Shown here: piece after piece, positions 15,673-55,173 of the stretch | Layout: every line of letters starts with the position of its first letter | Numbering within the stretch: position 1 is the first letter of the stretch | From: Bdellovibrionota bacterium | GTDB taxonomy: Bacteria > Bdellovibrionota_C > UBA2361 > CALJRW01 | Assembly (NCBI GenBank): GCA_041740355.1 | Contig: JBGSMD010000063.1 | Span: 53,002-117,001 of the forward strand | Direction: 5' to 3' | Length of the DNA stretch: 64,000 nt | The notes under the pieces: generated by a model | The model's input: the letters and a program-made list of their open reading frames with translations, nothing else | Told to the model about the DNA's origin: nothing | The model's database searches: none | Made by a program: the position numbers and the translations under genes

Positions 15673-17364
15673 TTATAGGACTGGTACATCCCCAGCACTA
15701 GCAGGAGTTTCATTATCACCAATATTGTTTGTATTACCATAACCGATACTACCAAACTCACCGCTACCCCAACACCTAACACTACCGGTATCCAGTAATA
15801 CACATGTATGAATACCTCCGGCGGCTAGTTGAACCACGGTGCCACCGACATTTACATTTCCGACACTTGCTGGAGTTTCATTGTCACCAATATTATTAGT
15901 ATTGCCATAGCCAAGCTGACCATTTAAGCCTCGGCCCCAACACCTAACATTTCCCGTATCTAGTAATGCACAGGTTTTCTTAAAACCAGTAGCTATCTGA
16001 ACTACGGTGCCTCCGACATTTACATTTCCGACATTGGCTGGAGTTTCATTGTCACCAATATTATTAGTATTTCCATAACCAAGCTCCCCATCCGAACCTT
16101 CGCCCCAGCATCTTACATTTCCCGTATCTAGTAATGCACAGGTGTGATTCCCTGAAGCGGCCAATTGAACTACATTGCCACCAATATTCACAGCCTCATA
16201 GATAAGAGGTCCAATAATGTCATAAGTGCCCCCATGGCCAAGTTGGCCATAATAACCATCCCCCCAACACTTAACATTTCCTGAATTAACCAAGGCACAT
16301 GTATGATTACTTCCTGCTACTATTTGAGTTACAGTTTCATTTTCAAAATTGTAATCTTGAATAATAACAGACTCAAAGTTAGCAGGAGCTTCATCGTCTC
16401 CAACATTAGTAGTATTTCCGTTGCCCAGTTGGCCATTTCGTCCATAACCCCAACATTTAACTTGTCCAGTATTTAAAAGTGCACAGGTATGATTTGAGCC
16501 AGCAGAGATTTGAGTAACAGTCCCGCCAACATTAACATCTCCAGCATTGGCAGGTGTTTCAAAGTATCCAACAGAAGCAGTACTACCATATCCAAGTACA
16601 CCATAGTTACCACTCCCCCAACACCTAACTTTACCTGTGTCAAGTAGGGCACAGGTATGACCCCCTCCAGTAGCGATATCAACGACATTCCCGCCAACAA
16701 TTACATCCCCAACGCTTGCTGGTGTTTCATCATCTCCAATATTATAATGTACAGGAACAGTTGCATATCCAAGTTTACCAATAAACCCCTCACCCCAACA
16801 TCTAACTGCTCCAGTATCTAGTAGAACACAAGTATGACTAAATCCTGCCGATATTTTTTGAACATCTAAAGGTATATTACATAAGTTAGAACAAGCATCG
16901 TCATTAATATTATTTCCATCATCACACTGTTCTCCAGACTGCTTGACTCCATCTCCACAAATAGGCGTTGTGCATATATTAGTACAGGAGTCCTCATTGA
17001 TCGTATTCCCATCATCACACTGTTCAGCAATATCAACATCAACTACACCATTCCCACAGGTATGATTACAAGCAACCAGTCCTGAGACATGAAGCTTCTG
17101 CATTTTTTTTGATTGATTATTATATTTATTAATTCCGGTTGAGGCGAACAACTTCTTAAAATTAGAACTTAGCTTCTTATAGGTAATAAATTTCTTTTTT
17201 TGAATCTTCCCTGGCTTCCAAGAACCATTAACGTTTTTACAAACATAATTTATACCATCCTTTTCAACGTTTACCGTCTGGGCAAAAGCCGCCCCGGAGA
17301 ATAAAAATAGGCAGACTAGCAAAGATGAGAAGATAAATTGAAATGAGTTTTTCATATGGATCAT
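15673..17364 (-). CDS. Secreted RCC1-repeat protein with N-terminal Myxococcus-type cysteine-rich repeats
   Basis: Signal peptide. Two CGNG...EQCDDGN...C...C...C units. At least 8 RCC1-like blades with HTCALLDTGxVxCWGxGxxGxLGYG. Confidence 0.8.
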   Translation of the reverse strand: MIHMKNSFQFIFSSLLVCLFLFSGAAFAQTVNVEKDGINYVCKNVNGSWKPGKIQKKKFITYKKLSSNFKKLFASTGINKYNNQSKKMQKLHVSGLVACNHTCGNGVVDVDIAEQCDDGNTINEDSCTNICTTPICGDGVKQSGEQCDDGNNINDDACSNLCNIPLDVQKISAGFSHTCVLLDTGAVRCWGEGFIGKLGYATVPVHYNIGDDETPASVGDVIVGGNVVDIATGGGHTCALLDTGKVRCWGSGNYGVLGYGSTASVGYFETPANAGDVNVGGTVTQISAGSNHTCALLNTGQVKCWGYGRNGQLGNGNTTNVGDDEAPANFESVIIQDYNFENETVTQIVAGSNHTCALVNSGNVKCWGDGYYGQLGHGGTYDIIGPLIYEAVNIGGNVVQLAASGNHTCALLDTGNVRCWGEGSDGELGYGNTNNIGDNETPANVGNVNVGGTVVQIATGFKKTCALLDTGNVRCWGRGLNGQLGYGNTNNIGDNETPASVGNVNVGGTVVQLAAGGIHTCVLLDTGSVRCWGSGEFGSIGYGNTNNIGDNETPASAGDVPVL

Positions 17365-17403
17365 TAAAAAAAGGATTAACTAACTTGTTAGGACTCGGAT
17401 CTT

Positions 17404-17515
17404 CTTGTTTAATCATTAAATAATACGGCGGCAGATAACTATCGACTCTTAAAGACTTAAACTTTAGAAATAATAATTAATGATTAGTTTGGATGAGACA
17501 ACTAAGATTTGAGAT
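17404..17515. repeat. Conserved 5' upstream element of RCC1 gene 1 (paralogous to 19437..19555)
   Basis: About 85% identical over roughly 110 bp to the region upstream of the second RCC1 gene. Confidence 0.5.
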
Positions 17516-17678
17516 TCAAGGTAAATCTCGAAACTCTAAGTGACTTTATTCACGGTTAAAAGCTGTGTCCTGACTAAATCAGACTATTTAGTTCCTAAAA
17601 ATTGCAGTTCGAAAATGGTGCCTTATAAAATAAATTTTCAAGCTACAAAATTAATATGGGACTCAAGTATCATAAGAA

Positions 17679-17706
17679 GTCTAATAGATTCTAAAAACTA
17701 TTAGAC
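17679..17706 (-). terminator. Hairpin (gtctaatag-N10-ctattagac) immediately 3' of the RCC1 gene 2 stop
   Basis: 9-bp perfect stem directly after the stop codon at 17731 on the minus strand. Confidence 0.45.
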
Positions 17707-17730
17707 TTCCAACTAATAATTTCTAGTTAC

Positions 17731-19401
17731 TTACAATACTGGCACATCGCCTGCACTAGCCGGCGTTTCGTCATCACCTATATCGTTGATATTACCATAT
17801 CCAAGATTACCCTCATCCCCATATCCCCAACATCTTACAGCACCAGTATCTAGAAGTGCACAAGTATGACTAACAATATAAGAAATTCTAGCATTTGAAG
17901 TAGTTATTTGAGTAACAGTGCCACCAACATTAATATCACCAACGCTAGCTGGAACCTCATTGTCTCCAATCGTTGTAAAATTTCCATAACCAAGTTGACC
18001 AGAACCTCCAAAACCCCAACACTTCACGGCACCAGTATCAAGTAGTGCGCAAGTGTGAGTTTTACCCGCAGATATTTGGGTTACCGTACCGCCAACATCA
18101 ACGTTATCAATACTTGCAGGTGTTTCATTGTCACCAACACTATATATATTACCGTAACCAAGTTGGCCCTCTTCGGCATATCCCCAACATTTTACTGCTC
18201 CAGTAGCTAAAAGCGCACAAGTATGATTATTGCCAGCAGATATTTGAGTTACTGTACCACCAACATTTATATCACCAACATTAGCTGGAGCCTCATTATC
18301 TCCAATAGTTTCAACATTTCCATAACCAAGTTGACCAGAACCTCCAAACCCCCAACACCTAACGGCACCATTATCAAGTAGTGCGCAAGTGTGACCACTG
18401 CCCACAGATATTTGAGTTACAGTACCGCCAACATCAACGTTACCAATACTAGCAGGTGTTTCATTGTCACCAATACTATTTGTATTACCGTAACCAAGTC
18501 GGCCATTTCCTCCATCGCCCCAACATTTTACAGCTCCAGTATCTAAAAGGGCGCAAGTATGCTTTCTACCAGCCGATATTTGAGTTACCGTACCGCCAAC
18601 ATCAACGTTACCAATACTAGCAGGTGTTTCATTGTCACCAATACTATTTGTATTACCGTAACCAAGTCGGCCATTTCCTCCATCGCCCCAACATCTTACT
18701 GCTCCAGTATCTAAGAGTGCGCATGTATGTTCTTCTCCCGCTGATACTTGAGTTATAGTACCACCTACATTCACATCTCCAACACTAGTTGGAGTTTCGT
18801 TATCTCCAATATTGATTACATTAGCATATCCAAGTTGACCAGAACCTCCATAGCCCCAACATTTAACATTACCAGTCTCCACAAGGGCACAGGTATGCGC
18901 ACCACCAGCGACTATTTCCAAGACTTTGTATAGACAAGTATTCGGACAAGTATCATCATCGTTACTATTCCCATCATCGCATTGTTCATCAGACTGGACA
19001 ATTCCATCACCACATTCTGGAAAATTACAAGAATTAGTACATAAGTCTGTGCTAACTAAATTCCCATCATCACACTGCTCACCCATGGATACGTCTAATA
19101 TTGTGTTTCCACAGGTATGACTACACGCAACTAACCCAGCTATATGCAGGTTCTTCATTTTTAGTGATTGCTTATTATATTTTTTTAAGGCAGTAGCTAC
19201 ATATAATTTCTTTAGATCTGATTGTAGTTTCTTGAAAGTTATAAATTTCTTTTTCTGGATTTTACCAGGTTTCCATGAGCCTTTAATTTGACTGCAAACA
19301 AACGTTTGTCCATCTTTAGTAACGGTAACTGTCTGTGCAAAAACTGAAGATGATAAACAAAAGAATACACAAGCGGATAATAATGAAAGCCTAATTTTCA
19401 T
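17731..19401 (-). CDS. Secreted RCC1-repeat protein with Myxococcus-type cysteine-rich repeats (tandem paralog)
   Basis: Same architecture as 15673..17364 and highly similar. Repeated HTCALLDTGAVxCWG blades. Confidence 0.8.
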   Translation of the reverse strand: MKIRLSLLSACVFFCLSSSVFAQTVTVTKDGQTFVCSQIKGSWKPGKIQKKKFITFKKLQSDLKKLYVATALKKYNKQSLKMKNLHIAGLVACSHTCGNTILDVSMGEQCDDGNLVSTDLCTNSCNFPECGDGIVQSDEQCDDGNSNDDDTCPNTCLYKVLEIVAGGAHTCALVETGNVKCWGYGGSGQLGYANVINIGDNETPTSVGDVNVGGTITQVSAGEEHTCALLDTGAVRCWGDGGNGRLGYGNTNSIGDNETPASIGNVDVGGTVTQISAGRKHTCALLDTGAVKCWGDGGNGRLGYGNTNSIGDNETPASIGNVDVGGTVTQISVGSGHTCALLDNGAVRCWGFGGSGQLGYGNVETIGDNEAPANVGDINVGGTVTQISAGNNHTCALLATGAVKCWGYAEEGQLGYGNIYSVGDNETPASIDNVDVGGTVTQISAGKTHTCALLDTGAVKCWGFGGSGQLGYGNFTTIGDNEVPASVGDINVGGTVTQITTSNARISYIVSHTCALLDTGAVRCWGYGDEGNLGYGNINDIGDDETPASAGDVPVL

Positions 19402-19686: not shown

Positions 19687-20103
19687 TTGAATAAGTGTAT
19701 AATAAACTATACACTTAACTCAATGAAAAGATCTCTTCCTTCTCATCTTAACACAACTAACCTCGCAATTATCCGATGTCTCTACCTAAGCGACTTCCCA
19801 GTTCCACTTCGTGAAATCGCTTATCGAACTAATCTTCAGATTAGAACTGTACAACTGATCTTAGAAAAATTTTTGAAAGAAAAAATTGTTCGAAAAAAAC
19901 GGAAAGGGCAACGGACTTCCTATACTATTAATAAAGAAGATCCCTACATTATTTTGCTTAACGAATTTATCGAGAAGCAAAATATGATGGAACTAAATCT
20001 GGCATCTCAAGAATATTCTGAAAGAGCTACTAATGCTCTACCCAATATTGTCAAAATGTATGAATTAGTAACTAGAGGTAAGAGAGATTATGAATCTAGA
20101 TGA
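19687..20103 (+). CDS. Small winged-helix DNA-binding protein (putative transcriptional regulator / antitoxin candidate)
   Basis: HTH-like segment LREIAYRTNLQIRTVQLILEKFLKEKIVRKKRKG (recognition helix plus basic wing). A probable true start is the internal Met MKRSLPS. 14-nt overlap with the next gene. Confidence 0.45.
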   Translation: MNKCIINYTLNSMKRSLPSHLNTTNLAIIRCLYLSDFPVPLREIAYRTNLQIRTVQLILEKFLKEKIVRKKRKGQRTSYTINKEDPYIILLNEFIEKQNMMELNLASQEYSERATNALPNIVKMYELVTRGKRDYESR

Positions 20104-20725
20104 TATTTTTGAATATGCTGTTAAAGAACTACATGAGCGTAAATGTAAATTTGCCGTTGCTGGCGGAATAACTTCGTCTGTCTATCGCAGCGAAGTTAGA
20201 TTAACGATGGATGCAGACATACTGATCTATTCTGGAAGCGACTCTCAAAAAATTGCTGAAGAAATTTTAAACAAAATAAATTATTCTGTTTCTTCTGCAA
20301 CGATTGCTAATCTTTCCCCCGCTCCGCGAATGAATAAGAAATCTCTACCAACCCTGATTATTGTTGGCCGACCTAAAGATAAGGGAGATATTGGACTAGA
20401 TTTCATTCTCCCTGATATGCCGTGGTTCCCAAAGGCAATAAGTCGCGCGCAAGATAATTTAATTGATTTTGGGTTTGGAAAAATCCCCTGTTTAACAATT
20501 GAAGATTTTATTATTTCTAAGTTATTTGCTTATCAACTAGCTCCCAAGAGAATCAAAGATCTAGACGATCTAACTTCTGTCTTTCAAAAAAAATCAAAGC
20601 TAGATCTTTCCTATCTTTGCGCTGAGTTAGAAAGATTAAAGATTGGAATACCAAAAGAACTCTATCAAATCGCACCGAAGGCACTACGAGTTCTTAGTAA
20701 AAGAATGAAGATCTCCTCTAAATGA
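20090..20725 (+). CDS. Minimal nucleotidyltransferase (Pol-beta superfamily; AbiEii/MNT-like toxin candidate)
   Basis: NTase signature hG[GS]...DxD is present as FAVAGGITSSVYRSEVRLTMDADILI. 211 aa. Confidence 0.5.
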   Translation: MNLDDIFEYAVKELHERKCKFAVAGGITSSVYRSEVRLTMDADILIYSGSDSQKIAEEILNKINYSVSSATIANLSPAPRMNKKSLPTLIIVGRPKDKGDIGLDFILPDMPWFPKAISRAQDNLIDFGFGKIPCLTIEDFIISKLFAYQLAPKRIKDLDDLTSVFQKKSKLDLSYLCAELERLKIGIPKELYQIAPKALRVLSKRMKISSK

Positions 20726-27046: not shown

Positions 27047-27085
27047 TAAACCCTCCGCAGATGAAATTTGCGGAGGGTGAGTGTC
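27047..27085. repeat. Partial copy (5' hairpin only) of the roughly 250-bp structured repeat family
   Basis: aaaccctccgcagatgaaatttgcggagggtgag matches the first 40 nt of the elements at 30688 and 37861. Confidence 0.45.
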
Positions 27086-27308
27086 ACCTGAGTCTTGTTC
27101 TCAGGTTCTAGGATATTTCTATATCAAAGCTTTATGTCTTTCAAGTATATTTCTATGTTTTAGTTAAATTCTATAAAAATGTTCTAATGCACGATCTCCC
27201 TGAGAACTTAGCAATAGAAATTAGTGAGTATTTTAAGGTAGTTATGAATTCTTGTAATTTAAGCACAATATCATAAGATACAAGCTCTTAACTTAATACT
27301 CAGTTCGC

Positions 27309-29260: not shown

Positions 29261-29701
29261 ATGAAAAATAAATTATTCCCTGTTATGTCGGCAGCACTTC
29301 TTAGCTTACTTTTTCTTTCCGCCTGCGGAGGAAGTAGCTCCAATGATAAAAGTGTCATAATCGAAGGGGATCTAAATCAAGGGGCAAGCTCTGACCATAA
29401 GTTATTCAAACATTCCGAAGGTGAGCACATTGGAGAAGTTGAAATCTGTGCCTTAGGTGAATGTTCGACCACTAATACTGAAGGAGAATGGGGTTTTGCG
29501 ACTTCGGAGGATCTAAACGGCAATGAAGTTTCTTTTAAATTTACGGGTCATGGCATTGATACGACAACAATCGTAAAAATTCCAGATGCTGAAGAAAATG
29601 TATTAATCAAATTTGTGCATAGTGCCAATGTTGTGACTATTGCTGAAATGTTAGTTGATGGACAGGAAGATCATTCTAATCATGACCACGCTCACGAATA
29701 G
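29261..29701 (+). CDS. Lipoprotein with C-terminal His-rich tail (metal-binding candidate)
   Basis: Lipobox LSACGG. C-terminus HSNHDHAHE. Confidence 0.5.
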   Translation: MKNKLFPVMSAALLSLLFLSACGGSSSNDKSVIIEGDLNQGASSDHKLFKHSEGEHIGEVEICALGECSTTNTEGEWGFATSEDLNGNEVSFKFTGHGIDTTTIVKIPDAEENVLIKFVHSANVVTIAEMLVDGQEDHSNHDHAHE

Positions 29702-29708
29702 TTCTACA

Positions 29709-30686
29709 ATGAAAAAATTTGTTCTGGGTATCTTTTTTACTTCCTTGTTATTCGCAACTAGCGCTTGGGCTTGCGACCCTTGCGCAATATTTAATGCCGC
29801 TAGGCTTGATGGACATGAGCCCAACAGTTGGCGAGTTTCACTAGGAGAGCAGTATACTAATTTTAAAAAAGGGAAAAGTTACCCAGAAAATTCCTTTCGC
29901 AATAAGGAGTTGGTTAAAGGATTTAGTAATACCCAGTTTGCTCTGTCCTATGATTTTAGTGAAGTTTTAGGACTACAACTAAGTATTCCCTTAATCTCTC
30001 GCTATGTTGAAGAAATCAAAGACTATCAAACTTCCAACAATTGGGATGCCGGCCTTGGTGATATTAGTCTAATAGCTTCTTACTCCCCAGTTCATATTAA
30101 AAAGTTAGACTGGACAGTGCTAACTGGTGTTTCTGCTGGAATAAAATTACCGACTGGAGACACAGGTGTATTAGAAGAAATTAGTGCTGACCCAGATGCG
30201 CAAGTAAAAGCTCAGTTTTTAAAGCACCACCCAGTTGGCTCTACCTCTGGTGGACGCGCCTTAACTTATGGATCAGGATCTTATGATTATATCATGGGAG
30301 CAAACAATTTACTTCGATATCAAAACTTTTTATTACTAAGCAATATTCAATATACGATCCGCACTGAAGGTGATTTTAATTACGAATTTGATAATGATTT
30401 AATTTGGGCCGTACTTCCAGCCTACTATCTTTTATTAGAACATGACTACACTGTGGCTAGTGGTCTAGGCCTTTCTGGCGAACATAAAGGTAAAGATCGA
30501 TTAGCTGGTAGCGAACTTGATGGTTCAGATATTTCTAATATCTACTTAGGACCTGAGTTAATCTTAAGCTTTAAAGGTAAATATTCTGCACAAATTGGAT
30601 TTGATTTTCGGGTCTCCAATAAAGATCGCGAAGCCGATATTGTGCCGGAGAATAGAGTACGAGCCAGTTTGGCTTATCGTTTTTAA
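29709..30686 (+). CDS. Outer-membrane beta-barrel protein (putative)
   Basis: Signal peptide MKKFVLGIFFTSLLFATSAWA. Alternating amphipathic strands. C-terminal ...LAYRF aromatic terminus. Confidence 0.5.
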   Translation: MKKFVLGIFFTSLLFATSAWACDPCAIFNAARLDGHEPNSWRVSLGEQYTNFKKGKSYPENSFRNKELVKGFSNTQFALSYDFSEVLGLQLSIPLISRYVEEIKDYQTSNNWDAGLGDISLIASYSPVHIKKLDWTVLTGVSAGIKLPTGDTGVLEEISADPDAQVKAQFLKHHPVGSTSGGRALTYGSGSYDYIMGANNLLRYQNFLLLSNIQYTIRTEGDFNYEFDNDLIWAVLPAYYLLLEHDYTVASGLGLSGEHKGKDRLAGSELDGSDISNIYLGPELILSFKGKYSAQIGFDFRVSNKDREADIVPENRVRASLAYRF

Positions 30687-30687
30687 A

Positions 30688-30916
30688 CTCTCCACAGATG
30701 AAATTTGCGGAGGGCGAGCGTAGTCTTAGCTTGTTTATCGGACGTAGCATTTGCGAAGTCTGAAACCAAGTTACGCCGTAGAAGACAAAACTGATACTCA
30801 CCGCTCTTTGTGCATTCGGTTTAGTATTATTTTCTCCGGCAAAACCCTTTTTGCAACAGGATTTTACTCGCTCACTTTGCTTTTCATTTTTTCTCAAAAA
30901 TGAAAAGCGGTGAGTA
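30688..30916. repeat. Structured MITE-like repeat, copy B (about 230 bp)
   Basis: Shares these blocks with the 37861 copy: 5' hairpin ccctccgca...tgcggaggg, conserved gacgtagcatttgcgaagtctgaa, atactcaccgct ... agcggtgagtat inverted repeats, and a 12-bp AT hairpin cttttcatttttt/aaaaatgaaaag. Confidence 0.6.
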
Positions 30917-31333
30917 TATAGTATCGTTTTCAATCTAGTCGCTTGGTATATTAAATGCGTAGCACTTGTAGCGACCCTAGGGGGGTGCTTAGGTTAAAAT
31001 GCTTATTGCATAAGCATTTTAACTTGGGAAAACAAATATACTATAGTCATCCCAATAAATAATTTCCGCTAGGAAATTATAAAACAGATCATGACTATAG
31101 AAGCGACCAGCGGGAGCCAAAAGATAAATAGTAAACCCAACTTTAAAAAACAGAGTTAAACCATCGGTTTATCTATAAACTTAGATCCTTAAATTACTTC
31201 AGGGTAAAAAAAATAAGGGTCAGCAAAAGTCTTAGTTAATCTATTTATCGGAAATCTATTTTTGGGTTTACTATATAATCCGAGATACGCAAAAAGTAAT
31301 TCCCAATGGAAATTACTTTTTGGGCTCACTATA

Positions 31334-32221
31334 CTAAAAAATAACTGCTGGATCACGTCGATAAACACGCTCTTGTTCTAATAAATAATTTTCATCTCCA
31401 GCTAGGTTAACAATCTGACGCATGACATCGCGATATTCTGATTTCTGATCACTGCTTAATAAAAAAAGATTTTGTCTTAGCTTAGACTGAGACTCTCTGT
31501 TGTAAGTGATTTGCTGTCTTATTTGCTCTAACTTTTCAATTCTTTCAGCTTTATCCATCGTCATCAAATCGACAATACCATCAATCAGGATTCCTGCCGC
31601 TTTAGCCGTAGATTCTTGTAATTCTCTTCTTTGAAGAAAACTACCAATCTCTTTTGAGTACTCTTCTCTTAGTTGTTTTGTGTTTGAACCAAATGCTTCG
31701 AGTGGAATGACTAAAGTATATCTTTCTGATAAATCAGAAAATGCCGTTAATAATTTATTTATTTCAAGTAAATTATTATAAATTAATTTTTTTAGTTCAC
31801 CAGCAATACTGGCATCCATTAACATTATCTCAGAAATTTCAATTAATTTTTCTGGATTAGAAGTCGCTCTTTGAATACTCTTAGCAATCTCTTCAAAGTC
31901 ATTTCTACTTAATAGATCCTTTAAACGCTGAGCCTCAGCGGGACTATCTGCAATAACTTCTAAAATTAATTTTAAGTTTTCGGGGTCCATTTTTCGTAAA
32001 CTCTCTCCGCGATTATTGGTAAGATAAGTGACAGCTTCACGTAAATTATCAAAATTTCTGTTAAGATTCTGTAAAGTTTCCTCAGTCGTCTTACGATCAA
32101 CCACAGTAAAATGATCCTTGGCATTTGTTAATTCGCGCACTAAGTTATTAAGCCCATCCTGCTGGATAATATCGCGTGGATTTAGAGTAGGGTTTCTTTC
32201 TTGTTGGATCGGATTTGGCAT
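31334..32221 (-). CDS. Hypothetical protein (295 aa, helical/charged)
   Basis: ORF. A palindrome aaaagtaattccc-aat-gggaattactttt lies directly 3' of the stop. Confidence 0.45.
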   Translation of the reverse strand: MPNPIQQERNPTLNPRDIIQQDGLNNLVRELTNAKDHFTVVDRKTTEETLQNLNRNFDNLREAVTYLTNNRGESLRKMDPENLKLILEVIADSPAEAQRLKDLLSRNDFEEIAKSIQRATSNPEKLIEISEIMLMDASIAGELKKLIYNNLLEINKLLTAFSDLSERYTLVIPLEAFGSNTKQLREEYSKEIGSFLQRRELQESTAKAAGILIDGIVDLMTMDKAERIEKLEQIRQQITYNRESQSKLRQNLFLLSSDQKSEYRDVMRQIVNLAGDENYLLEQERVYRRDPAVIF

Positions 32222-37838: not shown

Positions 37839-37860
37839 ATATACTGCTTGGAATTGAATA

Positions 37861-38116
37861 AACCCTCCGCAGATAACTTGCGGAGGGCGAGCGTAATCTT
37901 GGCTTTTTTACCAGACGTAGCATTTGCGAAGTCTGAAGCCAAGTTGCTCCGTAGAAGATAAAACCAATACTCACCGCTGATTTGCGTAGGGTTTGGTAGT
38001 ATTTTCTTCAGCAAAATCTGTCTCCCTCTTTCGCCAAAGCTTCAGAGGACAATTCGCCAGGATTTTGCTCGTTCACCTTACTTTCATTTTTTATAAAAAA
38101 TGAAAAGCGGTGAGCA
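37861..38116. repeat. Structured MITE-like repeat, copy C (about 256 bp)
   Basis: See copy B. Lies between the parC start and sspB. Confidence 0.6.
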
Positions 38117-38296
38117 TCTTATAATAATATCAGATAGTTATAGCGAGGGTGAGCTCAAGCTTTAATTTTATGATGATCTTAATTTAAACAAGAAGACCTG
38201 TTCCGTAAAGGGGGTCTTACAAATAGTCTTAATTTCTCAAAAAACACTGCTACTTCATAATTTGAAAATACTAGCCATGTAGGTTAGTTTAGCCCT

Positions 38297-38788
38297 ATGA
38301 CATTTTCCAGAACGGATGAAAAATACCAGACTTTAGAGACTCACCTAAGCCAGGATCAGTATTTAATGGTACATCTAAACCCTACTTACCCTGGTGTTTT
38401 AATACCAGAGAATTTTCTTGCTTCACCAACTCTTACACTAAAGTTAAGTTATAATTTTCAAGGAGTTACCGTTATCACCCCAGAATTAATTACGGCAGAA
38501 CTTATGTTTAATGGTAAACATTTTTCCTGCCGAATTCCACTGGCAGCGATTTGGGGTTGCACAACTATTGCTGAGAAAAACTTCATTTGGCCAGAAAGTC
38601 TTTCAGCAAATTCCTATGAGAGTTTAGCCACAGAAATGGAAAGTATTAAAAAACCTAAGTTAGCTGTTAATAAACAAGAAGATATTTCTACACCCTCTTC
38701 TAATCTTAAGAAAATTGAATCTGATCCCAAGCAGGAGGAACCAGTAGCAGAAAATAAAAAACGTCCAAACCTCACTCGAATTAAATAA
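38297..38788 (+). CDS. sspB: Stringent starvation protein B (ClpXP adaptor SspB)
   Basis: SspB-like core (LNPTYPGVLIPENF...IPLAAIWGCTTIAEKNF), an acidic linker, and the C-terminal ClpX-binding tail RPNLTRIK, comparable to RPALRVVK. Confidence 0.65.
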   Translation: MTFSRTDEKYQTLETHLSQDQYLMVHLNPTYPGVLIPENFLASPTLTLKLSYNFQGVTVITPELITAELMFNGKHFSCRIPLAAIWGCTTIAEKNFIWPESLSANSYESLATEMESIKKPKLAVNKQEDISTPSSNLKKIESDPKQEEPVAENKKRPNLTRIK

Positions 38789-38813: not shown

Positions 38814-41150
38814 ATGATTAATTTAAAAGTTTTGATTGGCTCAACTAAGATTAATTATAATCTTATATCTTTAATTCTAGCTCTTACTTGTGTCCATCTG
38901 AGCATTTCACAAATAATTTCTAGTGAACCAATAAGTGGCTGGGACACTCCAGGGCATCTCTACTTAACATATAAGATGCAAGAATTCTTAGGATTAGGAA
39001 CCTGGTTTGGCTATGATTCAAGCTGGTTCTCAGGCACAGCTCTCTTTGTGCTGTATCCACCACTAACATATATATTAATTAACATATTACATCTTATAAC
39101 TTTCTCTTCTGATCTAACTTATAGTTTTAACCTATTTATTTACCTTCAAGCTCAATTATTAGTAATAATTTTTTACTGGATAACAAAATATATTTTAGGT
39201 GTCGAATATCGGAAATATGTGATGTTGGTGCTCACCTTAATGTTACATACAAACATTATCTATTCGACCCACTTTATAGGATTAGCAGGATTATTTTACG
39301 CAGGCTTTCTATCAAATTGTACAGGGCTAATTCTATTCTTGCTGCTATTTGCACAAATCAGAAAACTGGAATTAAACATTATTAGCTCCTCTTATACTTC
39401 AATATTAATATTGAGCTTGATTTTACTTAACCATATAATCTCAGCAATATTTACTTTAATATTTATATCAATTTACTTAGCCCTTCAGGGAAATTCAAGG
39501 GTAGCGAAAAAATGGTTTGCTGTTATCGCAGTCGCTTCGCTGGTTGCTTCCCCTTATTACTGGATATTTATTGCCAATCTAGAATTTTCATCCTCAGAAG
39601 CTATCGGGCTTCACGGATCTTTTCCCGATCCCTTATTAGTCCTCTTTCCAAATCTTAATATTGAACATTTTGTGAATATGTTTAATGCCGAATTTAGCGA
39701 TACCTTCAGTTTTTTTAACTATAAAATCGAGTTGCCATTAATCATCAGTCAATTTCCATATTATGCGCTGATTGCTTTTTATTTTGGAATTAAAGGAAGT
39801 CTTCTAATTGTTAAAAGTCAAAAAAAACTACTGGGGTTTCTTTTTACAATTACTATCCTCTTCATATTCTTACCTCGCGCTTACTTAACAAACCTAACTA
39901 GCCTGACAATCCACTACTATCGCTTTACTGGCCTGCTGAGTTTCATGTTTATTTTTATAATTGCCTCTGGGATTAAACATTCTGACTACACACATAGCAA
40001 TTTGAAAAAAATACTCGGAGGTATATTTCTTGCTCTGATTTTACTACTAACAACGTCGTATCAGATGCTTTTCATTAGTGATTCTAGACATCAAGAATTT
40101 AAGCTACACCTGAGCGATTATCAAGGATATCAAAACCTAGATAAGGTTGCTAAATACCTTAAAGAGAACAATCTAACTGCAGGTGTTGCAATTGAGCAAA
40201 GCTATAATTTCCTCCTACAAGTCGGTTCCCTTCATGCCGTTTCATATCTTTTCCCGCATAAGTATAAAATCCCAATCAAGACTGGACTACTAGCTGAGTC
40301 AGCTTATTACTCGTCATTAATTAATCCCACTTTAGGTCTTCAAACAAATCACATGGTTTGGGGAAGTAAAGAATTATACCTTTTTAACTATTTTAATAAC
40401 CCAAAAAAAAATCCGAATTTATTTATTGAGAAGCTAAGGCTTTTAGGAGTAAAAGTATTAATCACAACAGATCGGGACAGCTTCAAAAAAATTAAAACCC
40501 TAACTCTTCAAAATCGTTTTCTAGTACTAAATAAAAAGATTGCTAATTATGCTATATTTGTTTTGCCAGAGTTGTCCCTAAAGAAAACCAACTCAATCAA
40601 GCCCCGATATCTATTTTTTGATTCAAAAGAATTAGCATTCAAAATGTTTTTTAGAGACTGGTTTGCTTATGATTCAACGATTAATTTTAACCTAGTATAC
40701 GATTACTTCAATTTGACTCAAAAAGATCCTAGCTTATTAAGTCAATTTTCAGGATTAGTCTTTTCCGCTGAGAATACAAATTCTTGTCTTAAGAATTACG
40801 AAAAGCTGAAGAGCTTGCAAGGTGATCTGAATGAAAAGTTAATCCCCTTAATTGATCAACAAAACCAGCAGCAAGAAAACCCAGCAATCCAAAAGCATAA
40901 GAGAGACTTTTATGATTTAGATATTATTTTCTTGGGTAAGAAGTGTTTTAAAGATCCGAACTGGAAAGTTAAGTGGATTAAAACAAATAATCCAGAAGAG
41001 AGAATGGCAAAACTAACAAAACTAGTTCAAAAAAATAAGCTAAAAATTCTCGTTAATAATAGACTGATTAATACGGAAGATACGTTTAGCCCACTAAATG
41101 GTAATAATTCATTTATCCAAACCCCGTTTTTTACTCTAAAGGTTAGGTAG
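38814..41150 (+). CDS. Large polytopic membrane protein with C-terminal soluble domain (GT-C-fold glycosyltransferase-like, uncertain)
   Basis: At least 12 predicted TM helices in the first 420 aa. First extracytoplasmic loop carries SGWDTPGH. A C-terminal soluble domain of about 350 aa. Strongly AT-rich codon usage. Confidence 0.5.
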   Translation: MINLKVLIGSTKINYNLISLILALTCVHLSISQIISSEPISGWDTPGHLYLTYKMQEFLGLGTWFGYDSSWFSGTALFVLYPPLTYILINILHLITFSSDLTYSFNLFIYLQAQLLVIIFYWITKYILGVEYRKYVMLVLTLMLHTNIIYSTHFIGLAGLFYAGFLSNCTGLILFLLLFAQIRKLELNIISSSYTSILILSLILLNHIISAIFTLIFISIYLALQGNSRVAKKWFAVIAVASLVASPYYWIFIANLEFSSSEAIGLHGSFPDPLLVLFPNLNIEHFVNMFNAEFSDTFSFFNYKIELPLIISQFPYYALIAFYFGIKGSLLIVKSQKKLLGFLFTITILFIFLPRAYLTNLTSLTIHYYRFTGLLSFMFIFIIASGIKHSDYTHSNLKKILGGIFLALILLLTTSYQMLFISDSRHQEFKLHLSDYQGYQNLDKVAKYLKENNLTAGVAIEQSYNFLLQVGSLHAVSYLFPHKYKIPIKTGLLAESAYYSSLINPTLGLQTNHMVWGSKELYLFNYFNNPKKNPNLFIEKLRLLGVKVLITTDRDSFKKIKTLTLQNRFLVLNKKIANYAIFVLPELSLKKTNSIKPRYLFFDSKELAFKMFFRDWFAYDSTINFNLVYDYFNLTQKDPSLLSQFSGLVFSAENTNSCLKNYEKLKSLQGDLNEKLIPLIDQQNQQQENPAIQKHKRDFYDLDIIFLGKKCFKDPNWKVKWIKTNNPEERMAKLTKLVQKNKLKILVNNRLINTEDTFSPLNGNNSFIQTPFFTLKVR

Positions 41151-41153
41151 TAG

Positions 41154-41312
41154 CTAGTTATAATTCATTTTATCTGCTGTAAATTTTAATTTTTGTGAGC
41201 TAGCTCTTCCCATAGCAGTTACGGCAACGATGGTTACGATAGCGATTAACGCAACAAGTAGTCCATACTCAACTAATGATGCCCCTTTTTTATTTTTATT
41301 TATTTTTTTCAT
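41154..41312 (-). CDS. flp: Flp/Fap-family type IVb prepilin (52 aa), absent from the supplied ORF track
   Basis: MKKINKNKKG|ASLVEYGLLVALIAIVTIVAVTAMG carries the Flp processing motif G/xxxxEY plus a hydrophobic helix. Confidence 0.7.
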   Translation of the reverse strand: MKKINKNKKGASLVEYGLLVALIAIVTIVAVTAMGRASSQKLKFTADKMNYN

Positions 41313-41363
41313 ATTCTTCTTTATTGGGTTTCCCCGTTAAATACGCCTGATTGATAAATCTAG

Positions 41364-41960
41364 TTAAATATCTAATTTTTTGCAATTAAGATGGAAATTA
41401 TTAGGTAAATCTACAGTTAGTGTAAACTGATATGCGCCTGCTACTGCTATATTTAATTTAATATTCTGACTGTTTTCGCCATTGAAAAGTGTAAAATCTT
41501 GATTCAAAGTAAGATTAGATCCCTCTTGTTCGAATCCAAATACAAAAGGGCTAGTCCAATCTTGATCTGCGATTTTAAATTCATACTCTCCGGGAATTAA
41601 GGGTAATACTACTCGATAGTTATTCCCGCCAACTGGCAAAAGCTGATTATAAGCTCCCGCTTTCCAATTCTCAATTCGATTAACACGAAGAAACACATTA
41701 CGATCAATACTTTTTATTGGATTATTAGCACTATTTTCTTGCGTAATTGGATTAAAATAAACTACAACGGCCAATAATAAGATTACAAGAAAAATTATCC
41801 CTCCAAAAATCTTGGCATAAGATTCCATCTTTTTCCTAAACCTATATTGTTCTGCGAATTTTTTTAAATTAGCAGTGCTTCTTGATCGAACCGAATCTTG
41901 AATAACATCGCCCAGACCTAATTGATCCTGTCTTTTAAACGTTCTTTTATTAAATATCAT
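41364..41960 (-). CDS. Hypothetical membrane-anchored protein with beta-rich C-terminal domain
   Basis: Single TM (IFGGIIFLVILLLAVVVYF). C-terminal domain rich in beta strands. Upstream of flp on the same strand. Confidence 0.4.
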   Translation of the reverse strand: MIFNKRTFKRQDQLGLGDVIQDSVRSRSTANLKKFAEQYRFRKKMESYAKIFGGIIFLVILLLAVVVYFNPITQENSANNPIKSIDRNVFLRVNRIENWKAGAYNQLLPVGGNNYRVVLPLIPGEYEFKIADQDWTSPFVFGFEQEGSNLTLNQDFTLFNGENSQNIKLNIAVAGAYQFTLTVDLPNNFHLNCKKLDI

Positions 41961-42185: not shown

Positions 42186-43604
42186 GTGTATATTTATATT
42201 TGGTTGGTTTGTGCAACCTATCGATTAGAACATATTAAAAAAGACAAACGGACCCAATCAGCAATCTTAGTAATGAACCTACTGCAAAAACTCTCCTCCC
42301 GTGAAAACTTTTTAGCAATCCTTGATATTTTAAAAAGTAAAAAAAAATCAAAATCTTGGATTCTACAATCTGCCCCGATTGAAAAATCAATATCGCTTGC
42401 TTGGTGTATTTATAACCAAGACTTACTTATCAAGTATTATTTAAAAAACTTAAGAAATCATTCCTATCGCCCACAAGTAAGAATTAAAATGACTATTTTT
42501 ATAGATAAACAAAGGATTATCTATAATATTAACTGGGTTGATAAAATTATGGACTATGCCCTGACTAAACTACTTTTTGATGTCAGTGCGGAATTTTTCT
42601 CCGATCAATTATTTTCCTATCGCCAAGGATTTTCTAATAAAAAAGCAGTAAAAAGCCTCTGTAAATATATCAAGAATAATCAAGGCTCAGAGATCTACAT
42701 TGCCAAACGAGATATTAAATCATACTTCGATAATATTAATAGCGGGATTTTAACCTCACAAATTAAGGAGAAATGTGGCGAGCAAGATTCCTTTTTTTGG
42801 AAACTTTTAAGTAGTTTCTTACAACCAGAATATTATGATCCGGAGCTAGATCTTCAGGAGCAACTACTTCTAGGAATACCAACTGGATCTTGCATCTCTA
42901 ACTTTGCTGCGAATTTTTATTTGCACGACCTTGATCATTTAGCTGTAAACAATTTAGACTTTTATGTTCGCTATGGAGACGATATAATTTTTGCTGATCG
43001 GGATAAGGATAAGCTAAATCAGCTTCTTAATACTTATCAAGAAAAAATTTTGGAACGCGATCTTAAATTCCACCCAGACAAAGATCTATTCCTGAAAATC
43101 GGACCAACTTTAGCAAGCTCCAAAGATTCGCCCTATCAAAGCAAAAAAGTATTTGATTACCTAGGTTACCAAATTAGCGACGAAGGACTTATCTTCCTAA
43201 AGTCTTATAAATTTAAAAAACTAAAAAAGGATATTAAGAGTAGACTATTCAACTCCTATCGCACATATTACCGTGCTGGACTAAGTAAGGATCTGCAAAT
43301 GTCTAATCTGATTAAAGACCTAAATGGTACGATGCGAGATTTAAATTACTATAATCATTTCGCCGATCTTGTCCTATTCACGACTGATAAACCACGACTT
43401 AAGGAATTTGATATTTGGATTGCTCAAACAATTATTGCCATGACTCATAACTGTTCTCGCGCTAATGCGTTTGGGAAAATTTCCTACAGACAAATACGCG
43501 AGGCAGGTCTATTCTCGATTCTAAATTACAAGAATATTTATCCTAGAAGAAATGAAGTTCTCCGATCTACAAAAAATCTCCAAAGCAGATCAGCAACGAC
43601 GTAA
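42186..43604 (+). CDS. Reverse transcriptase domain protein (RNA-directed DNA polymerase; no retron/DGR/group II hallmarks seen)
   Basis: RT motifs: YRPQVRI..IDKQ (motif 1), SYRQGFS (motif 2), YIAKRDIKSYFDNI (motif A), GIPTGSCISNFAANFYL (motif B'), YVRYGDDIIF (motif C as YGDD), FDYLGYQIS (motif E). The listed ORF begins with GTG. An internal ATG at 42273 is an alternative start. Confidence 0.8.
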   Translation: MYIYIWLVCATYRLEHIKKDKRTQSAILVMNLLQKLSSRENFLAILDILKSKKKSKSWILQSAPIEKSISLAWCIYNQDLLIKYYLKNLRNHSYRPQVRIKMTIFIDKQRIIYNINWVDKIMDYALTKLLFDVSAEFFSDQLFSYRQGFSNKKAVKSLCKYIKNNQGSEIYIAKRDIKSYFDNINSGILTSQIKEKCGEQDSFFWKLLSSFLQPEYYDPELDLQEQLLLGIPTGSCISNFAANFYLHDLDHLAVNNLDFYVRYGDDIIFADRDKDKLNQLLNTYQEKILERDLKFHPDKDLFLKIGPTLASSKDSPYQSKKVFDYLGYQISDEGLIFLKSYKFKKLKKDIKSRLFNSYRTYYRAGLSKDLQMSNLIKDLNGTMRDLNYYNHFADLVLFTTDKPRLKEFDIWIAQTIIAMTHNCSRANAFGKISYRQIREAGLFSILNYKNIYPRRNEVLRSTKNLQSRSATT

Positions 43605-45786
43605 TCTTGTCCGTAAAGGACTAGAGCAGTATGATCTCAGATCCTACTTACGCTACTTAAGGTATCGAATTAAATGGCCAATACTTTTTAAGTTACTTTC
43701 TCGACTAATTGTTATTGTTGAAGTGATTCTAATTCAACAACTATTTACTTATAATATTTTTGCAGACTTAACTCTCTATATTTTCATTATTTTTATCAGT
43801 CGAAGCGCCCTAAAAGGTATTACTCAATACTATCGTGTGCAACTAATGCCCCTAGCGACGGCAAAAAACATTTCTGGCCTAAATATCGCCCTAAGTAAGG
43901 CTCTGATCATAAACATCTTTTCTGCCTTTTTATTAGCCTTGGTCATTAGCATTCTTTGTCTACTCTTAGATTTATCGGATCAGTTAAACACTTACTTTAT
44001 AATTTCCTGGTGCTTATTAATCCCGCTAGAGCAAATTACCACGCAGCTTTGGAATACCGTCTATCTTAATACCCGACTAAGGCGAAGTGCCTTGATTACT
44101 TTCATTTGCCGCATGCTTCCAATCATTTCACTATTAGCTTTTAGCAGCTTGATTGGCCCCCTAAGTTACATTCTGGGTACATTTATGGCGAGATTATTAG
44201 AAAGTTTTTACTTATCGCGTGTCGCAATTTTAGCATTAAAGTTCAAATTTACATTAAAGAAGAAATCGAGCAGTTTGTTACAAGTTATCGGACAGTATTT
44301 TAAAAATCAAAAGGCGCGCCAATACCTTTACTTTAATGCCATCCTACCCTGTTATTTTTTGGGTCTTGGATTAATCATCTTTGAACGGGGAGTCGGTACC
44401 TGGATTACAAATATTATTTATTTTTTTATTTTAAATTTTGCAGTTTTTTTTACTACACAAATTTCACGCTCAATTCAATTTGACATCTACTCCTGCTTTA
44501 AAAAAGGGCAGGTAAAAAAAGCAACGTTCTTAGGCAAAAGAATTGTAAAATATACTTTGAACTTTGCTGTAATTCTAGCAGCTAGCTTTATCTATTTACT
44601 CTTAAATTCCAAAAGGTTTTACCTTTTCATACCAATTAGCTTAGAATATTTTCTATTAATCTTACCCTTGGCAGTAATTGCTCAAACGTTTTTTTTTTCG
44701 ATCTATGCCCAAATCCAATCCCTAGCAATCGATCGTTATTTCACCAAGCTAATCTTCATTAGCTTCCTCCTAATAGGCTTACCAATTCAGTTCCTTCTAT
44801 TTCATTATTACCTCGCAAATCTACAAGCGATCTACTGGACTGAAATCCTTCTCTTTGTGTTTGTAGGTACACTATTATATTTAAATTTGAACTTTAATCT
44901 CAGTCCCTTTTTAATAAAGTATATCAAAAGAGAGCGGAAGGCTCTGCCCCTGTGCCAACCAACTGCACTCCAATTAGAGCTCCGAACTAAATATATCAAA
45001 ACTGGCTCAGCTTATCTTTACATATTATCTTATTATGAGCGGGATGCTTTCTGGGAACGCATTAAGTATTCACTTCCCCAAACAAAAGATTTCTTAATTA
45101 CCCGGTACTCTGCTGGGCTCTTCCTGCTTTCATCTCATCAACCACTGACGGATCTTGATTTTCGCAACCTAAGCTTTGTTGCCAAAAAGCAAATAGATTT
45201 AAGCCAAGAGCTACTGCAGACTTTACTGGATATTTATACTTTTTACTATTCTCTAGAATTTAGAAATAGCTCATTCCAAAAAATACGTAATAAGTTCTAT
45301 CTTAATAGATCCATCAAAGAAGAATTGTATCAGTTAGCGGAATTAAAGAGGCCAGTAGATCAAATAATATCAGAGTTGCTTGGAGCTCCTAGGATCGTCT
45401 TCAAAAATGGTAAAATTTCTTGTTTGGGCAAAGTCAGTAATAAACTTTATAATTTTGCTTTGAACCAATATTTTTATCCTGACAATAACTTGGCTCCCGC
45501 AATTCAAGGATCCCAATTAACAATCAGAATTAATAATACGGAAACAATTAGTTTCGACTTAAGGCACTTGAATAGTTACCTAATTGGACAAGTTAATAAA
45601 AAGATTTTTTTCCTCAATCAATATTATTATTTTAAGAATATTATTGATCCCCATTTGCCATATGCAGCTAGCATTCAAGATTATTTAATAGCACGGAGAC
45701 TGATTCATAAACATACCCGTCGCTGTAAAACGAGAAAGGCTGACCATTTAGCAGATCTCAATTTTTATAATCATAAATTAGTATGA
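43552..45786 (+). CDS. Polytopic membrane protein (about 12 TM, MOP-flippase-like topology) with a 290-aa C-terminal soluble domain
   Basis: Hydrophobicity pattern. Overlaps the RT gene by 53 nt. AT-rich. Confidence 0.55.
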   Translation: MKFSDLQKISKADQQRRNLVRKGLEQYDLRSYLRYLRYRIKWPILFKLLSRLIVIVEVILIQQLFTYNIFADLTLYIFIIFISRSALKGITQYYRVQLMPLATAKNISGLNIALSKALIINIFSAFLLALVISILCLLLDLSDQLNTYFIISWCLLIPLEQITTQLWNTVYLNTRLRRSALITFICRMLPIISLLAFSSLIGPLSYILGTFMARLLESFYLSRVAILALKFKFTLKKKSSSLLQVIGQYFKNQKARQYLYFNAILPCYFLGLGLIIFERGVGTWITNIIYFFILNFAVFFTTQISRSIQFDIYSCFKKGQVKKATFLGKRIVKYTLNFAVILAASFIYLLLNSKRFYLFIPISLEYFLLILPLAVIAQTFFFSIYAQIQSLAIDRYFTKLIFISFLLIGLPIQFLLFHYYLANLQAIYWTEILLFVFVGTLLYLNLNFNLSPFLIKYIKRERKALPLCQPTALQLELRTKYIKTGSAYLYILSYYERDAFWERIKYSLPQTKDFLITRYSAGLFLLSSHQPLTDLDFRNLSFVAKKQIDLSQELLQTLLDIYTFYYSLEFRNSSFQKIRNKFYLNRSIKEELYQLAELKRPVDQIISELLGAPRIVFKNGKISCLGKVSNKLYNFALNQYFYPDNNLAPAIQGSQLTIRINNTETISFDLRHLNSYLIGQVNKKIFFLNQYYYFKNIIDPHLPYAASIQDYLIARRLIHKHTRRCKTRKADHLADLNFYNHKLV

Positions 45787-47513
45787 AATCCAAAAGTTTA
45801 ATCTACTTTATTTTCATTTTACTAAGCTTAATTATTGGACTATCGCTCCACGCTGAGAGAATCGAAATACCTCTTTACGTTCTACGAAAAGCAATTACTT
45901 GTTCTAGTGTTCAAGAGAAAACATTGGAAGTTGTTTTCCAAAACAAGTCTTATTTGATCGCATTTGACCATATTTACAGTACTCCCGTTATTAATGCAGG
46001 TTTAGTCTGTCAACGTTTGATCCGCTACTTAAAAGCAGCGCCTTCGCCCAATTTAATCATCCCTATCTCCAAAAAATATACCAAGTTCGGCCATGATATT
46101 TATGTCGATGAATCAGGATTTTTAGAAAAAGCTTGCCTAGAACAAGGGCTTTGTAAGCGAAACATCTTGGATACTTTTAAGCCCAAAAAAATACTCCGTG
46201 AATGTCATGGGAAAATTACACTAAACGGCTTATTGGCAAAATCTCGTCCCAAAATTCCTGGCTATCAAACAAAAATCATTAAAGATGTTACAATTAAAAT
46301 TCACCCATTTCATCCATTTATCAATATTCTAAATGAATACCTTCAAGATCCAATTTTAAAGGAAATTCATGCCTCTACTATGTCAATTGGTAATCAAGCC
46401 CTAGACGATATTTCTGCCAGCACGCAAAGCTACAATAAAAAGGCTGTAATTAATTATGATGCCGGAATTTCATTGTTCAATTCTCAACAAGGCCAAATTG
46501 CTAAGGCTATTACTAAGTCACCTAAAGTTCATTTTTTACCAATGACCAGTGGTAATAATTTTAGCCAATTTTATCACATCAAATTTATTGCTAGCCCACA
46601 AACTAACAAGTCAATGTTGGCCTCAATGAATTTAGCCTCAGTAGATCGAACAGCATATCTCGACCTAAATTTTTTCTTTGAGGATCCTACTATTCGCGAT
46701 GAGTTTTTATCCATCTCAAATAATAATAATCGAAGATTTTGTGATTATTCTGAAGATTATGACTGCTTAGCAAATTTTTATGATGAAAGATCAAAATCCC
46801 ATATTCCACTGGTAATAAATAGAAGTTGTCCGACAAGCAATACCGAAACTACTATCAAAAGATCTGGTTACTTTGTAAACTCCGAAGATGATGATCTCAA
46901 ACAATTTGTGATAAACTTTATTAATCAAGCAAAACAAGAAATCATTGTAACTTCCTACAAGTTAACAGAAAGAGCCATTGCCAAGGCCTTATTAAACAAG
47001 CAGCAAGAAGGGCTTAAAGTTCACGCCATGTTAGCCTTTAAATCTCCCGCATTGGGCGAATTGAAAAGCCATTTCTACTCGGGGGAAGTTGTTAAGGAAG
47101 AGTATCCTTTTCCTCACATGAAAATTATTATTATCGATCGCCGACTAATGCTATTTGGAACTGCGAACTTCACGATTAATGCTTTAAATAATACAACTGA
47201 ATTAATTGGAGTTACTGATAATCAGCAAGCAATTAAAACAGCGTTAGATCATGTCGCAGTTTTTACACAGTCCAAAGATCTGGCCTTAAGTAAAAACATT
47301 TCCAATACTCCTAAGCAGAAAAATTATGTAGCAGTGACGAGCTCTACGCAGATCAAACCAGTGAATTTACCTTTTACTAAACCGCTTGAGCAGAAATGGT
47401 TATCAAACTACCGAGAGGTAACAAAGGAAGGCGAAAAATTATTAGATAAGTGTGATTTAAGGCACCTTATTTTTATAACTAAGGCAACTTATTTGGAATG
47501 TCTTAAAAAATAA
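45783..47513 (+). CDS. Secreted phospholipase D / HKD-superfamily protein (two-domain, second HKD intact)
   Basis: Signal peptide MKSKSLIYFIFILLSLIIGLSLHA. Canonical HKD HMKIIIIDRRLMLFGTANFT (HxK-x4-D-x6-G-x-x-N). A degenerate first motif YHIKFIAS lies about 185 aa upstream. ATGA overlap with the preceding gene. Confidence 0.6.
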   Translation: MKSKSLIYFIFILLSLIIGLSLHAERIEIPLYVLRKAITCSSVQEKTLEVVFQNKSYLIAFDHIYSTPVINAGLVCQRLIRYLKAAPSPNLIIPISKKYTKFGHDIYVDESGFLEKACLEQGLCKRNILDTFKPKKILRECHGKITLNGLLAKSRPKIPGYQTKIIKDVTIKIHPFHPFINILNEYLQDPILKEIHASTMSIGNQALDDISASTQSYNKKAVINYDAGISLFNSQQGQIAKAITKSPKVHFLPMTSGNNFSQFYHIKFIASPQTNKSMLASMNLASVDRTAYLDLNFFFEDPTIRDEFLSISNNNNRRFCDYSEDYDCLANFYDERSKSHIPLVINRSCPTSNTETTIKRSGYFVNSEDDDLKQFVINFINQAKQEIIVTSYKLTERAIAKALLNKQQEGLKVHAMLAFKSPALGELKSHFYSGEVVKEEYPFPHMKIIIIDRRLMLFGTANFTINALNNTTELIGVTDNQQAIKTALDHVAVFTQSKDLALSKNISNTPKQKNYVAVTSSTQIKPVNLPFTKPLEQKWLSNYREVTKEGEKLLDKCDLRHLIFITKATYLECLKK

Positions 47514-50895: not shown

Positions 50896-50915
50896 TAAAT
50901 TTGTCCTTGATTAAA

Positions 50916-55143: not shown

Positions 55144-55173
55144 CTTTTTCACAATTTTATTGTGAAAAAGTGC
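55141..55173 (+). terminator. 15-bp perfect-stem hairpin overlapping the tRNA-Phe 3' end, with a U-run inside the stem
   Basis: gcactttttcacaat-ttt-attgtgaaaaagtgc, read directly. Confidence 0.5.

Follow-up and report, generated by a model that had tools for sequence, protein, structure and literature searches.

What is the structured sequence of about 240 bp that recurs between the genes of this uncultivated member of the Bdellovibrionota: a mobile element, a small RNA or a regulatory leader of the genes beside it? The question is raised by positions 30688-30916 of the 64,000-nucleotide stretch of DNA analysed here (the window), where the original prediction recognized an intergenic repeat family of two full copies and one partial copy, and offered two readings of it, a MITE-like mobile element or a set of paralogous sRNA genes. 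The evidence assembled here leads us to favour, with a probability of roughly one half, a lineage-specific, non-autonomous and non-coding insertion element of the MITE-like kind.

The repeat family itself is confirmed. Its two full members, copies A and C, match each other with a BLAST E value of 8e-49 and are identical in 196 of 238 alignment columns (82%), and an nhmmer profile built from the two sequences recovers them from the window at E values of 1e-82 and 1e-93. The third locus aligns with profile positions 2-58 (nhmmer E value 2.7e-9); only about 41 nt of it (27047-27087) belong to the element, the rest being ancestral flank that is also present in a related genome. All three copies have the same orientation and lie inside 11 kb, and they make up two full and one partial copy in the 67 kb of this genome that were read, namely the window and the Logan contig L026. 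No other copy was detected by nhmmer in the rest of the window, the reverse transcriptase locus described below included, and no further copy lies in the 3 kb past the window end that are covered by Logan contigs of run SRR28170465. The contigs of this run agree with the window at 100% identity, and one spans 37965-38125, the right 160 nt of copy C, so that at least this part of the copy is no artefact of the window's assembly; the breaks between Logan contigs are uninformative on repeats, since some of them fall inside parC. Copies A and C differ by 27 transitions and 15 transversions, substitutions that look neutral, as well as by one indel of 29 nt, one of 2 nt and two of 1 nt. The surrounding DNA is AT-rich (about 36% G+C over 26-39 kb), and the closest named homologues of its parC gene come from MAGs annotated as Oligoflexia or Bdellovibrionales. 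The positions of the copies and of their structural blocks are collected in Table 1.

Table 1. Copies of the repeat, their structural blocks and the direct repeat flanking copy A (window positions).
Feature	Position	Strand	Remarks
Copy A, full element, 238 bp	30684-30921		between the stop codon of the plus-strand gene 29655-30686 and a mosaic of other small palindromes
Copy C, full element, about 265 bp	37859-38123		in the divergent parC / sspB-like intergenic region, 19 nt upstream of the true parC start
Truncated copy (TAAAC, GC hairpin, TGAGTGT)	27047-27087		23 nt ahead of the start (27024) of a 58-aa minus-strand ORF, which is followed by uvrD
GC hairpin, copy A	30688-30714	minus	then TTTAAAAA on the minus strand; terminator-like
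GC hairpin, copy C	37863-37887	minus	9 perfect pairs, then TTTATTCAATT; terminator-like, just before the parC ATG
GC hairpin, truncated copy	27051-27077	minus	then TTTATAATTTT on the minus strand
Invariant 24-nt block, copy A	30741-30764		small hairpin GAC-GTA-GC-ATTT-GC-GAA-GTC
Invariant 24-nt block, copy C	37914-37937		
Central arm ATACTCACCGCT, copy A	30794-30805		partner 30906-30917
Right arm AGCGGTGAGTAT, copy A	30906-30917		local pairing also possible, extending the AT hairpin
Central arm, copy C	37967-37978		
Right arm AGCGGTGAGCAT, copy C	38106-38117		odd position: G-U on the minus strand, A.C mismatch on the plus strand
AT-rich hairpin, copy A	30879-30908		13 perfect pairs
AT-rich perfect palindrome, copy C	38082-38105		12 + 12
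29-nt insertion, copy C only	38024-38052		folds into its own small hairpin
9-bp direct repeat TATCGTTTT, left of copy A	30675-30683		ancestral gene sequence (TATCGCTTT in the relative); possible target-site duplication
9-bp direct repeat TATCGTTTT, right of copy A	30922-30930		

Several blocks that had been described for the repeat recur as expected. The 24-mer GACGTAGCATTTGCGAAGTCTGAA, singled out before as a conserved block, is exact in copies A and C, with 0 occurrences expected by chance, and the AT hairpin was found in both full copies by an inverted-repeat search. The 9-bp hairpin CCCTCCGCA-loop-TGCGGAGGG is exact in copy C and at the third locus but imperfect in copy A, where it reads CTCTCCACA...TGCGGAGGG and contains one mismatch and one G-U pair. 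Rather than the 5' hairpin that it had been called, it is better read as a terminator-like 3' hairpin of the minus strand, a GC stem followed by TTTAT; this pentamer is found after the hairpin on the minus strand in all three copies, and the plus strand has CGAGCG there. None of the three hairpins passed a terminator scan with a simple consensus; as we read them, they have short T-tracts, and the loop measures 9 nt in copy A and in the remnant. The 12-nt inverted pair ATACTCACCGCT / AGCGGTGAGTAT is present in both copies, but only in copy A is it complete (12/12, arms 100 nt apart), copy C having 11/12 with the arms 127 nt apart.

The ends of the unit are another matter. Terminal inverted repeats had been claimed, yet the inverted-repeat search returned internal pairs only, and the 12-nt pair is not terminal because one of its arms lies in the middle of the element. 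At the true ends we could discern by eye only a weak subterminal match of 6-7 in 8-9 positions, at differing offsets, between CCCTCCGC and CTCACCGC. All three copies start with TAAAC, which is either part of the repeated unit or a preferred target. The 9-mer that bounds copy A on both sides might be a target-site duplication; in the window as a whole, 0.3% of pairs of 25-nt segments at the same spacing share a 9-mer. The repeat at copy A could instead extend an internal inverted repeat (pair I4). No flanking direct repeat or target-site duplication was seen at copy C or at the remnant.

The repeat does not encode a protein. When the reading frames of copies A and C were compared, no conserved ORF was found: the only frame common to both is broken by the 2-nt indel, the indels are not multiples of 3, and by our count changes in the shared frame fall 5, 4 and 3 times on codon positions 1, 2 and 3. 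A small protein or type I toxin was rejected on account of this broken frame and the absence of a third-position bias. The parC ORF had been suspected of a false N-terminal extension, and it does read through copy C and is 58 codons too long: on the minus strand it runs for 810 aa from a TTG at 38014, whereas the true ATG at 37840 gives 752 aa, and its homologues have about 752 aa. The repeat is in this respect a caution for gene callers.

Comparison of insertion presence and absence in relatives, which had been proposed as a check, was carried out on about 90 kb of contigs (L002-L008), among them those of the nearest relative (L002 and L003) and of two outgroups (L005 and L007); neither BLAST nor nhmmer found a copy of the repeat in them. 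The nearest relative has a parC gene that is 95% identical in amino acids and about 78% in nucleotides, and its coding DNA is about 75-81% identical, so that it must be regarded as a different species; parC of the outgroups is 66-69% identical. At the parC site, the intergenic region of the relative and of both outgroups measures 157-194 bp and lacks the element, and both of its flanks align to the window; parC and its divergent sspB-like neighbour are 157 bp apart in the relative as against 457 bp in the window. Because the element is missing there from the relative and from both outgroups, copy C is a gain in the window's lineage. Its junction can be read as a clean insertion (TAAAC, element, ATAATAATATC in the window; TTAAC followed by GCAATAATATC in the relative) or as one in which the element replaces 7-8 nt. 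At the site of copy A, two convergent genes abut in the relative (L002), and the window has 647 additional bp, composed of copy A, of other small palindromes totalling about 370 bp, and of a terminator-like hairpin (31290-31336). At the remnant site, the relative has unrelated sequence of similar length. As the relative belongs to a different species, what these comparisons demonstrate is that copies were gained or lost at some time after an old split; they do not demonstrate recent mobility. Between the full copies lie 7 kb with parE, parC and syntenic genes that the relative has as well, for which reason direct repeats bounding a genomic island were rejected.

The same two intergenic regions hold further features. 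In the parC / sspB-like region, a second insertion of about 44 nt with respect to the relative (38209-38254) is unrelated to the repeat family. The sspB-like gene is preceded, at 38255-38299, by what by eye appears to be TTGAAA-17 nt-TAGTTT ending 6 nt before the ATG, a motif kept in the relative (TTGAAA, 17 nt, TACTTT); its position suggests a leaderless mRNA and a promoter style that is missed by a consensus scan. Next to copy A, 15 nt to its right, lies a unit of about 107 nt (30937-31043) that is 76% conserved in the relative at a different locus (L003:1748-1854). It has inverted ends GGTATATT ... AATATACT and a 15-bp hairpin whose pairing is kept through 6 double changes (GGTTAAAATGCTTAT/ATAAGCATTTTAAC vs GGTACTCAGCCTTAT/ATAAGGCTGAGTAC), and Rfam contains no match to it; it may be a small RNA or a second mobile palindromic unit, and it is better supported by covariation than the repeat. 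From the other small palindromic repeats in the copy A intergenic region it follows that this genome accumulates such elements. The terminator-like hairpin there is one of four copies of a bidirectional palindrome, AAAAAGTAATTCC-loop-GGAAATTACTTTTT (11640-11703, 31290-31336, 50856-50902 and 54103-54149), and around two of them 50754-50897 and 53993-54144 are 79% identical over 152 nt. Elsewhere in the window, two adjacent minus-strand paralogues (15673-17364 and 17731-19401) contain tandem 168-nt (56-aa) repeats over 15655-19100, with 8-13 units and 62-87% identity. The tRNA at 55071-55143 is followed, within 55141-55442, by an exact 49-bp tandem duplication (55326-55423) and related repeats of 32-64 nt, and the tRNA at 62274-62346 by a 72-nt imperfect palindrome (62347-62418). 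A DUF7342 / AbiEii nucleotidyltransferase pair at 19687-20725 is a type IV toxin-antitoxin candidate.

The repeat was not found in any of the public databases searched. Rfam 15, applied to the whole window at gathering thresholds, returned 3 tRNAs only, and at E values up to 10 it gave no family for the two copy regions, the best overlapping match scoring 24.7 bits against a threshold of 50; a known RNA family was rejected on this basis. A group II intron fragment was rejected as well. A 20-mer from the invariant block had one chance match, in coding DNA of Lacihabitans, among one genome per GTDB species, and two chance matches in JGI metagenomes; 17-18-mers of three blocks retrieved nothing from IMG/VR except the seed itself, and BLASTN in distant mode gave no match among plasmids and phages. 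A six-frame translation of both copies (as a joined query) had no match at E 10 among 5.8 billion predicted proteins. Had ORFs been miscalled on homologous elements in assemblies of Logan, ENA or NCBI, this search would have picked them up. To judge from public data, the family therefore occurs in this organism alone. The literature on Bdellovibrio repeats yielded nothing relevant.

The strong folding of both copies would also fit a functional RNA and in so far counts against an insertion element. In each copy, either strand folds far better than shuffled sequences do (z -4.8 to -7.5; -5.1 and -6.0 for the minus strands of copies A and C), which follows from the partial self-complementarity of the element, as seen from reverse-strand self-matches in nhmmer. 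When the structure of one copy is projected onto the other, only 8-10 of 17-19 changed pairs can still form, with no difference between the strands, and RNAalifold finds one or two double changes between the two sequences. From two sequences there is thus no evidence of a selected RNA structure, nor of a strand preference, with the exception of one position in the 12-nt pair of copy C, which is G-U on the minus strand and A.C on the plus strand and so favours the former. This position would speak for paralogous sRNA genes, in which an RNA would run on the minus strand from about the CTCACCGC end to the GC hairpin as its Rho-independent terminator, and so would the presence of hairpin and TTTAT at the same end of all three copies, the end of the repeated unit 4 nt past the stem, about where such a transcript would stop, the good minus-strand folding of both copies, and a weak -10-like hexamer (TACTAT in A, TATAAG in C) noticed by eye at equal distance upstream of CTCACCGC. 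However, no sigma-70-like site was found on the minus strand upstream of copies A and C, with a consensus that may not be this phylum's, and the sequences flanking the two copies are unrelated, so that the repeated unit carries no shared external promoter; an sRNA gene with an external promoter of its own is therefore not supported. Given also that the relative and the outgroups lack the element, whereas an sRNA gene should be conserved there, that Rfam knows no such family even at E 10, that only about 50% of the changed pairs are kept, the minus strand faring no better than the plus strand, and that the hairpins failed the terminator scan, the sRNA half of the original prediction appears unlikely. 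A further alternative would make the element a cis-acting leader or attenuator, the 5' UTR of parC or of the 58-aa ORF and uvrD, in which alternative pairings decide on termination. In support of this, start codons on the minus strand follow 19-23 nt after the end of copy C and of the remnant, the AGCGGTGAG arm can pair either locally or with a partner 100-127 nt away, and a central segment of copy C (37980-37994) can compete for an arm of the terminator hairpin (pair I1). Since the ancestral part of the parC-sspB intergenic region, where the parC promoter is to be expected, now lies upstream of the element, copy C is probably transcribed within the parC leader. Yet copy A is upstream of no minus-strand gene; opposite it is the 3' end of a convergent gene, and it lies downstream of genes on both strands. 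Copy A does not conserve the competing pairing of copy C, and of the proposed sensing body nothing is left in the remnant. None of the relatives examined has the element upstream of parC, and hence it is not part of a conserved parC control; a riboswitch or attenuator should always precede the gene that it regulates and be conserved in relatives, and the repeat does neither. A regulatory leader thus strikes us as distinctly improbable.

Other alternatives start from the reverse transcriptase gene (42186-43604), which is situated 4 kb from copy C in company with genes for a 744-aa protein and for a PLD-like nuclease. The repeat might be a template or guide RNA of a retroelement, either a retron or DRT ncRNA for this enzyme or SINE-like re-inserted copies of an RNA, and an exact common end at the terminator side, the truncation of one copy from the opposite end and the 9-bp repeat flanking copy A would all suit such an origin. 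But the relative has the reverse transcriptase operon beside sspB and parC without the element, which suggests that the operon may work without it; neither copy adjoins the reverse transcriptase (copy A is 11 kb away), whose locus holds no further copy in the nhmmer search of the window, and copy C and the remnant lack a flanking repeat. A retron or DRT-RNA role was rejected in view of this distance and of the relative's operon, and a DGR template/variable repeat pair was excluded because the substitutions are not adenine-specific, all types occurring, and both copies are intergenic. Of the readings weighed here, a link with this reverse transcriptase is the one we can credit least. Scarcely more credible is a mobile RNA module in place of a DNA transposon, that is, a terminator-capped structured RNA of about 240 nt that would spread in SINE-like fashion through an RNA intermediate, possibly with the help of the orphan reverse transcriptase, or that would serve an enzyme encoded elsewhere as a portable regulatory or guide RNA. 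It is allowed for by the shared boundary 4 nt past the stem, the opposite-end truncation, the 9-bp repeat and the strong predicted folding, and we consider it very unlikely.

The reverse transcriptase operon merits description in its own right. It extends over 42186-47513 and comprises the reverse transcriptase (PADLOC best RT_UG26, E 9e-33; Pfam RVT_1), the 744-aa protein, which matches no family, and a PLD/DrmC-like nuclease of 576 aa; the relative has a conserved counterpart (L002 2015-7276), and the operon looks like an uncharacterised defence system based on a reverse transcriptase. Between the sspB-like gene and this operon, 38814-41960 encodes three proteins: one of 778 aa, which matches no family, a Flp/Fap pilin of 52 aa whose gene was called on the Logan contig, and one of 198 aa. 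The relative's homologue of the 778-aa protein is found elsewhere on its contig, and this block has therefore been rearranged or inserted.

We return to the insertion element as the preferred explanation, with which the absence of the repeat from the syntenic sites of relatives agrees, and with which the missing terminal inverted repeats and a flanking repeat at one copy only do not. In its favour are further the neutral-looking substitutions, the low share of changed pairs that are kept, the unrelated flanks of the copies, the solo end fragment at the third locus, the other palindromes beside copy A and the 9-bp repeat there; the small number of copies and the lack of a transposase among the ORFs scanned count against it. 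The mobile unit would be about 240 bp long, with TAAAC and the 9-bp GC hairpin at one end, a partly self-complementary body that includes the conserved small hairpin, and at the other end the AT-rich hairpin nested in a GGTGAG/CTCAC stem. It would have been copied into AT-rich intergenic sites after the split from the nearest sequenced relative, and one copy would later have been trimmed to its hairpin end. The window ORFs scanned include no transposase, and no TnpA, TnpB or IscB either, nor does the window contain a RAYT gene; since no transposase is found in the window, the copying enzyme is presumably encoded elsewhere in the genome. As terminal inverted repeats and a consistent duplication are lacking, we assign it to no class of transposition. 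Each copy would bring with it a terminator-like hairpin on the minus strand (GC stem, then TTTAT), which copy A would set between two convergent genes and which copy C and the remnant would set 19-23 nt before the minus-strand starts of parC and of the 58-aa ORF before uvrD. In front of start codons the hairpin would provide a structured leader, with a possible damping or insulating effect on transcription. If this reading is true, the repeat adds one more small intergenic family in a barely studied phylum of predatory bacteria, is usable as a strain marker, and provides an example of a terminator-like hairpin inserted directly before an essential topoisomerase gene. The detection of a discrete RNA, or of many genomic copies with a defined insertion signature, would define a new class of Bdellovibrionota element.

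Small intergenic repeats have been described in a variety of bacteria, and the repeat shares features with several of them. As expected of MITEs, it is short and non-coding, lies in AT-rich intergenic DNA and is present or absent at orthologous sites, here between species; inverted repeats at the exact ends, another mark of MITEs, were not found in copies A and C. The Correia/NEMIS elements, the MITEs of Neisseria, occur in hundreds of copies, with clear terminal inverted repeats of 26 bp and a duplicated TA. The present repeat resembles them in being small (100-300 bp), non-coding and intergenic, in forming stable hairpins and in differing in presence between related genomes, and like them it may be transcribed together with its neighbours and place terminator or promoter signals beside genes. 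It differs from Correia elements in that its ends are not inverted repeats, a flanking repeat accompanies one copy, and only two full copies and one partial copy are known. ERIC/IRU and the bcr1 repeats of the Bacillus cereus group are intergenic imperfect palindromes of 120-160 bp or more, without coding capacity, that occur in transcribed regions, vary in presence between strains and spread in an unknown or poorly defined manner. The repeat is likewise imperfectly palindromic, intergenic and non-coding, yet it has no sequence similarity to them, is longer and modular (GC hairpin, body, AT hairpin), and belongs to a single uncultivated lineage of the Bdellovibrionota. REPs are 20-40 nt long, occur hundreds of times and are associated with a RAYT gene; unlike them, the full element measures about 240 bp, although the 41 nt at 27047-27087, a GC hairpin unit standing alone, are reminiscent of a single REP, and the palindrome mosaic of the copy A region recalls the REP/BIME type of organization. 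Omega-RNA-type families (HEARO, IS605-orfB) gave no match in Rfam at E 10, provided that the Rfam copy used holds them. The PATEs derived from IS200/IS605 elements differ from the repeat in that its end hairpins are unrelated to each other (GC-rich vs AT-rich) and that copy A has a flanking direct repeat. The likeness to PATEs nevertheless extends to the lack of terminal inverted repeats and to subterminal hairpins at both ends; moreover, the TAAAC that precedes all three copies could be a target of the kind such elements use, and the junction of copy C can be read as just such a clean insertion, free of a duplication.
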